Source of the DNA: Oscillibacter sp.
Lineage (GTDB): Bacteria; Bacillota; Clostridia; Oscillospirales; Oscillospiraceae
Length of the DNA: 64,000 nt
Reading direction: 5' to 3'
Assembly (NCBI RefSeq): GCF_028693505.1
Contig: NZ_JAQUVF010000011.1
Coordinates: 832-64,831 of the forward strand
Each line of letters begins with the position of its first letter. The first letter of the stretch is position 1. Shown here piece after piece: positions 9,798 through 39,696 of this stretch. Both the position numbers and the translations under genes were made by a program. The notes under the pieces are model-generated. The model had not been told where the DNA came from. It saw only the letters and a program-made list of their open reading frames with translations, and did no database searches.

Positions 9798-10003
9798 GGA
9801 CTGGCCTAAGGCCAGCCCCCAGTCTGTCGATAACCCCTAAAATCCCAAAAAACGGGAAGGAAGATAGTTACGAAAGAAACCCAGGAAGGGTGTCTTTCGT
9901 TTTCAATCATAAGTTTTTGATACTTTTCACGGGTTTCAAAAACTTGCACAGCGTGTCGAAAAGACTTTTACGACATGCTGTGGACTGGCCTAAGGCCAGT
10001 CCC
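9798..10003. mobile_element. 161-bp MITE-like element, copy A (9820-9980), flanked by a 22-bp duplicated palindrome
   Basis: Core is the reverse complement of the copies at 33363 and 39092. Flanks are GGACTGGCCTAAGGCCAG(C/T)CCC at 9798-9819 and 9982-10003. Confidence 0.8.
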
Positions 10004-33325: not shown

Positions 33326-33561
33326 GGCATGGTTTTCGTCACCTTGACGAAAACCATGCCCTCAGCTTGCCGAAAACTTCTTTTCGGCAAGCTGAGCAAG
33401 ATTTTTTGAACCTCTTGAAGTTCAAAAAACTTCTGATTGAAAACGAAAGACACCCTTCCTGGGTTTCTTTCGTAACTATTTTCCTTCCCGTTTTTGGGGT
33501 CATCAGGGTCTGCTGGCAGACTGCGGGCATGGTTTTCGTCACCTTGACGAAAACCATGCCC
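33326..33561. mobile_element. 161-bp MITE-like element, copy B (33363-33523), flanked by a perfect 36-bp duplicated palindrome
   Basis: GGCATGGTTTTCGTCACCTTGACGAAAACCATGCCC at 33326-33361 and 33526-33561; shares the core with copies A and C. Confidence 0.82.
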
Positions 33562-33581: not shown

Positions 33582-34616
33582 TCAGCTATCCGCGCTCTCC
33601 CGCAGGCTTTGCAGCTTCTCAAAAAAATCGGCGGGATCAATTTTTTGATAGGCCTCCGCCTCTTCCACCACCGCGCCTTTGGCGGCCTCCTCCAGCAGGG
33701 AATCGAAGTACTCCCCCAGAATCACAGCGGAATCCACCGGCAGCCGCCGCAAAATGGAAAAGCCCTCCTCGGACTCCAGAATCCCGGAGCACTGCCCCTC
33801 CTCCAGCGTGGCGGCGGCCTCCTCCAGCGCGCTGGAGAGCGCGCCGTCCCCCACCGTCACCGTCCTTGGACCCTTTGGATCATCCCCCGCCGCGGAGAGC
33901 GCGGCAAACAGCGAGGCCTGATCCTCCGCGCTGTTGAGCTGGGAAAACAATTCCGCCGCCCGCTGCTGAGCCGCCGCCCGGTCGTCCTTGACGGCCACCA
34001 GAATGCGGTCCAGCGTCATCCGCTTCTCCTTCTCGGCAAAGGCCTTGAGGGCCGCCGGGTCCGGCGCGAGCGCGCTGCCCGGTGTTTGACACTGTGCAAA
34101 GAGTTTGGCGTACAGCCCCCCCACGCCTTGAAGCTCCTCCATGCGCTCCCGGTTCAGTCCCCGGTCCCGCAATTTGCGCAAAAACGCATCTTCTCCGTCC
34201 TTTGTCTCCTCGGCCCAGTCGCCCTCCAGCGCCTCCCGGTCGCTCTCACTCAGTGCGCAGCCGTACTTTACCGCCCAGTTTTCCACCGTGGCATACAGGG
34301 CCGTATTCGCCAAGGCCTGGTCTCTTGCATAGTCCGCAAGCGTTCCGCCGGTCACCGGCGTGTTCCAGTCCAGCCGCAGCCCCGCCTTTTCGTACTGCTC
34401 CTGAATCCCGTCGCAGGTATCCGCCAGCCAGTAAAGATACCGCCACGCGCTCACTTTTCGCCCGTCCACCGTCACCAGCACCGCCGTCTCCTCCAAGTCG
34501 GCGGCCTCTCCCAAAAATGAGGTCTGGCTCTGGTCGCTCCCCTTCCCGCCGCAGGCGGTCAAAAAAAGGCACACTCCCAGAGCCAGCGCACACACGCATT
34601 TTTTCAAGGCGCTCAC
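33582..34616 (-). CDS. PrsA/SurA-like lipoprotein (parvulin-like foldase region)
   Basis: Lipobox LTAC, SurA-like helical N-domain, RILV and SGILESEEGFSILRR parvulin-like motifs. GTG start inferred. Confidence 0.7.
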   Translation of the reverse strand: MSALKKCVCALALGVCLFLTACGGKGSDQSQTSFLGEAADLEETAVLVTVDGRKVSAWRYLYWLADTCDGIQEQYEKAGLRLDWNTPVTGGTLADYARDQALANTALYATVENWAVKYGCALSESDREALEGDWAEETKDGEDAFLRKLRDRGLNRERMEELQGVGGLYAKLFAQCQTPGSALAPDPAALKAFAEKEKRMTLDRILVAVKDDRAAAQQRAAELFSQLNSAEDQASLFAALSAAGDDPKGPRTVTVGDGALSSALEEAAATLEEGQCSGILESEEGFSILRRLPVDSAVILGEYFDSLLEEAAKGAVVEEAEAYQKIDPADFFEKLQSLRESADS

Positions 34617-34736
34617 TCCTCTCCCCCCAAGGTTGTCCATCCATGTGTATGCGGGGAAGGGGCGTATCATGCCTTGTTTCGTTTTTTCAAAAGCCGTGCC
34701 CGCTCCGGCGCGGGCGGCGCTTTGTGCGAGAGATAC

Positions 34737-38439: not shown

Positions 38440-39027
38440 TCAATTGAATTCGTTCATGGCCTTCTGGCAGCCGTCCGTCACAATGCGCTCTGCCGCTTCG
38501 ATGGCCCGGTCAAACGTTTCCGCCAGCGCCTTCCGCTCGCCCTGAGAGGGGACCCCGATGACCCAGTCGATCATGTCTCCTCCCTCGCCGGGGGCGCCGG
38601 TGCCGATCTTGATGCGGGGAAATTCCTGGGTTCCCAGATGGGCGATGATATTTTTAATGCCGTTATGACCGCCTGCGGAGCCGGAGGGCCGCACCCGGAG
38701 TTTTCCCACCGGCAGGGACACGTCGTCATAGATCACCAGCACGCGCCCGGCGGGAATTTTATAAAACTGCGCCGCCTCCCGCACCGCCTCGCCGGAGAGA
38801 TTCATATAGGTCTGGGGCTTCATCACAAGGCATTTTGCCCCGGCAAAATCCATCACATTATAAGCGGCCTTGAACTTCACCCGGTTGAGCTTCACGCCCT
38901 GCCGCTGCGCCAGCAGGTCTACGGTGAGAAAGCCCATGTTGTGGCGGGTATGCTCGTATTTCTCCCCCGGGTTTCCAAGGCCGACGATCAGCCAGTCCAC
39001 GGCGGAGGATTTGTTTCCAAGCAGCAT
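38440..39027 (-). CDS. pth: Peptidyl-tRNA hydrolase
   Basis: IVGLGNPG..TRHNMGF, KPQTYMNLSG, YDD and GGHNGIKNII motifs. Confidence 0.97.
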   Translation of the reverse strand: MLLGNKSSAVDWLIVGLGNPGEKYEHTRHNMGFLTVDLLAQRQGVKLNRVKFKAAYNVMDFAGAKCLVMKPQTYMNLSGEAVREAAQFYKIPAGRVLVIYDDVSLPVGKLRVRPSGSAGGHNGIKNIIAHLGTQEFPRIKIGTGAPGEGGDMIDWVIGVPSQGERKALAETFDRAIEAAERIVTDGCQKAMNEFN

Positions 39028-39056: not shown

Positions 39057-39288
39057 GAGCAAGGCGGGAAAGAAGTCTTTCCCGCCTTGCTCAGCGTGTC
39101 AAAAAAGTCTTTTCGACACGCTGTGCAAGTTTTTGAAACCCGCAAAAAGTTTCAAAAACTTATGATTGAAAACGAAAGACACCCTTCCTGGGTTTCTTTC
39201 GTAACTATCTTCCTTCCCGTTTCCCGGGATTTCAGGGTTTAATTGATAGCCTGAGCAAGGCGGGAAAGATTTCTTTCCCGCCTTGCTC
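39057..39288. mobile_element. 162-bp MITE-like element, copy C (39092-39253), flanked by a 36-bp duplicated palindrome
   Basis: GAGCAAGGCGGGAAAG-(AAGT/ATTT)-CTTTCCCGCCTTGCTC at 39057-39092 and 39253-39288; shares the core with copies A and B. Confidence 0.82.
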
Positions 39289-39340
39289 TTTTTGGGGTGC
39301 CGCATTGGCGTGCCGCACCGTTTTCTGCGCAGCGGAAAGC

Positions 39341-39696
39341 TTCCGCCTCCCCCGTCCGTCTCCGACGCGAAGGCGCGAAGCGTTTGCGTCGGAGACGTAG
39401 GAAGAACGTAGCGGTGTGAGGAATCGGCAACGCCGGTTCCGAATGAAGCGCAGTTTCTTCCGCGTCCCCCGTCCATCTCCGACGCAAAGGCGCGAAGCGT
39501 TTGCGTCGGAAGAGGAGGAAGAACGTAGCGGTGTGAGGAATCGGCAACGCCGGTTCCGAATGAAGCGCAGTTTCTTCCGCGTCCCCCGTCCATCTCCGAC
39601 GCAAAGGCGCGAAGCGTTTGCGTCGGAAGAGGAGGAAGAACGTAGCGGTGTGAGGAATCGGCAACGCCGGTTCCGAATGAAGCGCAGTTTCTTCCG
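39341..39696. repeat. Tandem array of three 117-bp palindrome-rich units (REP/BIME-like)
   Basis: Units start at 39341, 39458 and 39575. Units 2 and 3 appear identical; unit 1 has a few substitutions. No spacers. Confidence 0.92.

Follow-up and report, generated by a model that had tools for sequence, protein, structure and literature searches.

How does a short element without an open reading frame of its own come to lie, at several places in one genome, between two copies of a complete hairpin that differs from site to site, and which enzyme could have put it there? The window, that is, the whole 64,000-nt stretch of DNA analysed here, raises this question with three copies (A, B and C) of an ORF-less element of about 161 bp. 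CAG...CTG ends, an imperfect TIR (CAGnnTGTCGAnAA) and a core that hardly varies are common to all three, and we re-located them exactly where an initial annotation of the sequence had placed them.

Three insertions between duplicated hairpins

The copies, the hairpins that flank them and the neighbouring genes are as follows.

9820-9980, plus strand: copy A, MITE, 161 bp, left TIR CAGTCTGTCGATAA
9798-9819: left hairpin repeat of copy A, the degV terminator hairpin GGACTGGCC-TAA-GGCCAGCCCC, with a minus-strand T-tract next to it
9982-10003: right hairpin repeat of copy A, abutting the degV stop codon
10847..10008, minus strand: degV (Pfam DegV, E=8e-60)
33363-33523, minus strand: copy B, MITE, 161 bp, in the same sense as the PrsA-like rotamase gene upstream of it
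33326-33361: distal hairpin repeat of copy B, 36 bp, scoring as a minus-strand terminator with the tail ATTTTGAT
33526-33561: gene-proximal hairpin repeat of copy B, a perfect 36-bp repeat
34670..33582, minus strand: PPIC-rotamase (PrsA-like) gene, upstream of copy B
39092-39253, minus strand: copy C, MITE, 162 bp, in the prs-pth spacer, its end nucleotides common to the repeats
39057-39092: hairpin repeat of copy C on the pth side, 36 bp, some 30 bp upstream of where pth starts
39253-39288: second hairpin repeat of copy C, two loop bases different, followed by TTTTTGGGG on the plus strand
39027..38440, minus strand: pth, beside copy C

The flanking direct repeats measure 22 bp at copy A (one mismatch), 36 bp at copy B (perfect) and 36 bp at copy C (two mismatches, both in the loop). 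As the initial annotation had described, they bracket each copy and bear no relation to one another among the three loci; each proved to be a complete stem-loop. Microhomology leaves the boundaries of the window copies ambiguous by 1-3 nt. The hairpins at A and B lie 3' of degV and of the PrsA-like gene, respectively, and had been taken for the terminators of these genes, a reading borne out by a terminator consensus scan in which both score. At both loci the T-tract stands on the distal hairpin, while the gene-proximal one has been without a T-tract since the insertion. The notion that a terminator was left on both sides of the element thus stands for the stem-loop, present in each copy, but not for the T-tract, which accompanies the distal copy alone. 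At degV, the functional distal terminator is predicted to be the hairpin at 9798-9819. Beside copy C, the prs-pth spacer is filled by a tandem repeat at 39340-39696 (a 117-bp unit in 3.1 copies, 97% matches), each unit of which is rich in palindromes.

Family spread and geometry of the duplications

A BLAST search with copy A, together with the inspection of flanks that had been advised for all copies, identified nine copies in the 2.06-Mb, 49-contig assembly, 57-93% identical to one another; eight of the nine lie between direct copies of a 22-36-bp hairpin that is specific to the locus. Of the 25 same-genus genomes searched, 15 have the family, and an order-wide sample of 401 genomes showed it in three further genera; it was not found in 16 representatives of other families. 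Its ends, CAGnnTGTCGA(A/T)AA on the left and the inverse of this on the right, are conserved over about 50 copies. Shorter than about 300 bp and lacking a transposase ORF, with TIRs, locus-specific duplications, dispersed copies and ends that match an autonomous IS (see below), the element has the make-up of a MITE. A coding element was considered and rejected, as variants have lost its one ATG-initiated frame and the compensatory changes in its stems would alter any peptide. Solo 32-bp TIR-TIR palindromes outside MITE copies were not found in this genome.

Across 16 genomes, this one and its relatives, 50 copies have enough flanking sequence for the repeats to be assessed. A direct repeat abuts both ends in 34 of them, ranging from 16 to 45 bp with a median of 29 bp, and is perfect in 22, a pattern far beyond chance. 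The 34 duplications are symmetric about the dyad of the hairpin, and their length tracks stem length with no fixed ruler; the repeat starts no more than 1 nt from the base of the stem in about 21 of the 34, and the remaining repeats end where the G+C stem meets an A/T extension formed by pairing of an A-tract with a T-tract. In almost all cases (31 of 34) a stop codon is no more than about 90 nt away. With GC3-filtered ORFs, the element proved to be oriented at random with respect to the upstream gene: nine copies are sense and 12 antisense, 10 stand between convergent genes and three have none. These counts overturned the constant sense orientation that the first loci had suggested.

About a third of the MITE copies show no matching duplication and instead have unrelated hairpins on either side, or a hairpin on one side. 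Conjecturally, we put these cases down to chimeric assembly, to copies that recombined with one another and to decay. A further misfit is a variant element found behind the same gene in two species (L014, G021:C18, and L226, G022:C38). This variant has a different right half and a flanking repeat of about 41 bp that comprises the hairpin, the T-tract and about 15 more bases, which does not fit a duplication of the stem alone. In one relative, G011, a recent burst is indicated by sequence identity, since at least 18 of its copies are 96-99% identical; contig C110 of the same genome begins with a fragment, possibly decayed, of an IS1182-type transposase.

Empty and occupied orthologous sites

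Orthologous sites in relatives, which the initial annotation had proposed to align, carry one hairpin. Most relatives have a single terminator hairpin 3' of their degV orthologue, and the one in G022 (GACTGGCC...GGCCAGTC) resembles the window repeat at copy A. Likewise, at the site of one G011 insertion, G003 has one homologous hairpin (GGCAGAGAC-AAA-GTCTCTGCC). These empty sites all belong to other species. Exact-protein look-ups with DegV, Pth and the rotamase returned no empty allele from the same species; they led either to nothing or to contigs of a single sample (SRR22315505), which carry the insertions.

Other degV terminators are themselves occupied, those of L197 (G064) and L212 (G054) holding independent MITE insertions with other hairpins, and the degV terminator appears, from these sequences, to be a recurrent target of the MITE. 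It has been hit in three species, in both orientations and with different hairpins. At one G011 locus (L065, G011:C19), a convergent gene of about 600 bp that both L234 (G014:C28) and L235 (G003:C129) possess is missing beside the MITE; a deletion adjoining the insertion may account for its loss.

An IS1182-family partner

The window had been annotated as free of any transposase, and we likewise found no IS1182-type transposase there or in the whole 2.06-Mb assembly. Since this partner is absent and the copies have diverged to 57-93% identity, the window copies are old orphans. Across the family, 12 of the 15 MITE-bearing genomes show no partner IS.

The lead to the enzyme came from the literature on hairpin-targeting ISs, which pointed to IS1272 of the IS1182 family and, from there, to a transposase search in the genus. 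The first IS1182-like matches (L031-L033) had no matching ends. The matching subgroup was first met in G015:C88 (L034), where the end ...GGGTTTCTCGACAGGCTG is directly followed by a hairpin, and with the L034 protein as query we retrieved full-length ISs of about 1.57 kb in the same genus, that is, the longer element with the same ends plus a transposase that the initial annotation had recommended looking for. For example, the IS at L044 (G105) is 1,573 bp long, has the ends CAGTCTGTCGAGGAACCC... and ...GGACTTTTTCGACAGACTG, and has the 24-bp terminator hairpin of ftsH on both of its sides. Its 488-aa transposase scores 406.9 bits on the NCBIfam model NF033551, 'IS1182 family transposase' (cut-off 270), and matches the Pfam families DUF772 (PF05598), DDE_Tnp_1_6 (PF13751) and DDE_Tnp_1 (PF01609).

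What the MITE and these ISs have in common is limited to the terminal 17-19 nt of each end, which rules out a simple deletion derivative of the IS. The left end of the MITE corresponds to the IS end at which the transposase C-terminus is encoded, and the right end of the MITE to that of the N-terminus. A hairpin specific to the locus directly adjoins the CAG or CTG terminus at all IS ends inspected in the genus; in G085, the identical hairpin on both sides of an IS even allows contig ends to be paired. In G015, the IS1182-type IS ends about 27 contigs and is therefore a high-copy, assembly-fragmenting element. Its copy at L034 (G015:C88) has an IS30-family IS with a 365-aa ORF inserted in the transposase gene (121-1345).

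Footprint of full-length elements

A scan of one genome per species gave 80 loci in Oscillospiraceae and other Clostridia, among which 40 IS candidates have both ends. Perfect hairpin duplications of 23-38 bp lie flush (gap 0) with both termini in 18 of these 40. The complete genome of Chakrabartyella piscis (CP092441) has duplications at five of five ISs, two of them imperfect, and a Pygmaiobacter MAG with megabase contigs has a hairpin duplication at four of four, so that all nine ISs of the two most contiguous assemblies carry the duplication. About half of the IS candidates have no matching repeat and show unrelated hairpins on each side, mostly on short MAG contigs; we read them, conjecturally, as assembly chimeras or recombinants.

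The same footprint extends beyond the genus and even to Bacillaceae, where an IS1182-family IS with 46% identity on the Sutcliffiella horikoshii plasmid pBH-BAT-167 has duplicated a 30-bp hairpin. A relative in Enterococcus faecium shows no flanking hairpin duplication. Because ISs outside the genus, including the one in S. horikoshii, leave the hairpin footprint, duplication of the whole hairpin is a property of a broad IS1182 subgroup. The hairpin-duplicating ISs of C. piscis, Pygmaiobacter, Oscillospiraceae MAGs and S. horikoshii share with the MITE the end motif (CAGnnTGTCGA or CAGnnTGTAGA...AAAGTC) and the preference for terminators. They differ in being about 1.5-1.6 kb long and encoding a transposase, whereas the MITE has 161 bp, no ORF and an unrelated interior.

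Proposed mechanism of insertion

Our reading of these insertions, to which we give a probability of about 0.86, is that a DDE transposase of the IS1182 family moved the MITE in trans, that the hairpin was chosen by its shape and that the whole stem-loop was duplicated. We infer mobilisation in trans, ongoing or past, from the similarity of the ends and the common footprint. The target would be recognised by DNA shape, not sequence, as a palindrome rich in G+C, in most cases the intrinsic terminator that closely follows a stop codon. Each 3'-OH end of the element would then be joined to one strand at the 5' feet of the stem, which are 22-45 bp apart in linear DNA and would come to lie side by side once the palindrome is extruded as a cruciform. 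Subsequent gap repair would copy the stem-loop, giving a complete hairpin at each end of the element, and the original T-tract of the terminator would remain with the gene-distal hairpin copy.

A shape-reading mechanism is proposed because duplication length tracks the stem, the duplications have dyad symmetry, targets have no sequence specificity, orientation is random and the partner is a DDE enzyme. That the target is read as a cruciform or a hairpin, and the polarity with which strands would be transferred, are likewise inferred. That a non-autonomous element is joined at the two feet of a palindrome, which is thereby duplicated, had been anticipated in the initial annotation and agrees with the dyad-symmetric, stem-length-tracking duplications. 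The simplest reading of these duplications is the hypothetical 'pathway b' of Wan et al. (2017), in which attack at the 5' feet leads to the entire stem-loop being duplicated (PMC5678879). Wan et al. drew it only as an alternative to the deletion made by IS1272; the dozens of natural insertions gathered here point to an IS1182 subgroup whose duplication is set by DNA shape and takes in the whole stem-loop, at 16-45 bp. They also offer a clean system for studying how a DDE transposase reads a cruciform.

A conserved interior

The interior of the MITE is unrelated to that of the IS and more conserved than the termini, which a purely parasitic MITE would not lead one to expect. It contains three hairpins, placed in copy A as follows.

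about 9852-9905: hairpin 1, within the conserved core
about 9912-9946: hairpin 2
9949-9980: hairpin 3, the right-end palindrome, formed by the TIR and its own inverted copy

Compensatory changes are found in 15 of the 33 predicted pairs of these hairpins. The purine-rich core (ACGGGAAGGAAGA...CCC-AGGAR-GGG) is invariant. Hairpin 1 is enlarged in subfamilies by discrete blocks of about 46 and about 57 nt, as seen in two copies of the same genome (C3:53155-53355 and C48:18519-18736) and in L228, L230, L231 and L232 (G022, G019). The ~46-nt block (TCAAGGTGAATTGCCGCG.AGCGGCAAGAGA.GGTGGCCTGGGCCA) belongs to the 3' arm, and some copies have the further ~57-nt block in the 5' arm; each block has a hairpin of its own, both recur across species, and they resemble the expansion segments of structured RNA.

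Such features raise the possibility that the ~110-bp interior is a structured RNA or ssDNA module useful to the host and selected as such, with the IS1182 ends as its vehicle to terminator and 3'-UTR positions. This idea is compatible with IS1182 mobility and differs from a purely mobile element in what is maintained and why; if true, the roles open to the module would include those of a Shine-Dalgarno-like decoy, a stabiliser or a replacement terminator. The unusual conservation of an interior unlike the IS, the compensatory changes and the discrete expansions all speak for it. We nevertheless regard it as rather unlikely, given the random orientation (nine sense, 12 antisense, 10 convergent), the lack of a detectable internal promoter at copy A and the Rfam searches with copy A and expanded variants from relatives, in which nothing came near any gathering score. 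Furthermore, the strand asymmetry of wobble pairs is weak (16 G-T versus 7 A-C cells), and transposition machinery that needs DNA hairpins would yield covariation too. In a weaker version, the hairpins may be cis-acting DNA structures for a hairpin-reading transposase.

Other enzymes and known systems

The initial annotation could name no described element that matches this one, but relevant precedents exist, hairpin targeting having been published for IS1272 and variable inverted-repeat duplication for IS1630. One of these is IS1272/TnSha1 of staphylococci, an IS1182-family element that targets stem-loops and terminators with no primary-sequence specificity (PMC4923244, PMC5678879). Like the partner IS described here, IS1272 has a transposase of this family and inserts at the foot of a hairpin. 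However, it deletes all or part of the stem-loop without duplication ('stem-loop replacing'), a loss that Wan et al. explained by attack at the 3' feet (PMC5678879), whereas the MITE and its partner ISs keep the stem-loop and duplicate it. Targeting of palindromes by some IS1182 members is attributed to Siguier et al. 2015, as cited in PMC4923244 and PMC5678879. Both the MITE and the ISs analysed here display such palindrome targets, with hairpin duplications of 16-45 bp for the MITE and 23-38 bp for the ISs. For the IS1182 family as a whole, ISfinder gives direct repeats of 0-60 bp.

A MITE paired with an IS1182-family partner is likewise known from the archaeon Methanosarcina acetivorans, in the form of the ISMac2-derived MITEs (Kamoun et al. 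2013, PMC3852290). These resemble our element in being non-autonomous, 160-169 bp long and linked to the IS via terminal repeats, but differ from it in their direct repeats of 4 or 0 bp, with no whole hairpins, and in their archaeal host. Against this background, the MITE is a new example of a known, hairpin-aiming IS1182 family and establishes no new principle.

Another transposase that makes long duplications, either of the IS1634/IS1549 type with which the element had been compared or of the IS30 type like IS1630, could in principle have moved it. Both families are documented to produce long and variable duplications, of 19-26 bp for IS1630 (PMC2853133, PMC3317919), and an IS30-family IS does exist in the genus, within the IS1182-type IS of G015. 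We consider this explanation improbable, as both MITE ends match IS1182-family ISs with the same hairpin footprint and no IS1634- or IS30-type element with CAGnnTGTCGA ends was seen. The partner transposase, moreover, scores 24.9 bits on NF033559 (cut-off 100), against its 406.9 bits on the IS1182 model, which separates it by family from IS1634/IS1549 despite the shared long, variable duplications. To our knowledge, IS1634/IS1549 duplications are not palindrome-defined. Those of IS1630 from Mycoplasma fermentans come closer, in that inverted repeats of variable length are duplicated (Calcutt, Lavrrar & Wise 1999, J Bacteriol 181:7597, as cited in PMC2853133), but IS1630 has an IS30-family transposase and other ends, and is autonomous.

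The initial annotation had also likened the insertion to the work of Cas1-Cas2, and a constant insert beside a duplicated palindromic repeat does formally recall CRISPR adaptation. Cas1-Cas2 and casposons resemble our case in the staggered attack that flanks a (often palindromic) repeat and in the gap repair that duplicates it, yet the enzyme is a different one and both repeat length and target are fixed, while here the duplicated unit differs at each site. We therefore treat the likeness as an analogy alone and regard a non-DDE integrase, whether Cas1/casposase-like or a site-specific or RNA-guided recombinase, as highly improbable. Each locus has a duplication with its own sequence and length (16-45 bp), which excludes att-type recombination and a fixed Cas1/casposase ruler, and a DDE partner exists with the same ends and footprint. 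Finally, that the hairpins are part of the element, or owe their origin to a local tandem duplication or to slippage in replication and not to target-site duplication, is scarcely credible: loci with a hairpin on the right side only or with two different hairpins (L007, L010, L019 and L024) would fit it, but the hairpins are unrelated between loci, match the resident single terminator at orthologous sites and abut the TIRs exactly, with gap 0 in 18 ISs.

Consequences for annotation and transcription

Returning to insertion by an IS1182-family transposase at hairpins, the duplicated stem-loop provides an easy annotation signature in MAGs of gut Clostridia, where such elements break assemblies and double terminators. 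The position of the sites past genes, with a stem-loop on each side and the T-tract on the distal copy, suggests why insertions of this kind are tolerated.

Since the proximal hairpin is without a T-tract, transcription from the upstream gene probably runs past it into the element. Transcripts entering in antisense, as predicted at degV, would stop at the right-end palindrome of the element and its T-run, and those entering in sense would stop at the distal hairpin. Where a gene reads into the right end, as degV does at copy A, the element may thus supply a replacement terminator. The right-end palindrome at 33361-33396 in copy B and its equivalents in other copies, when read antisense, are followed by a T-run and score as intrinsic terminators.
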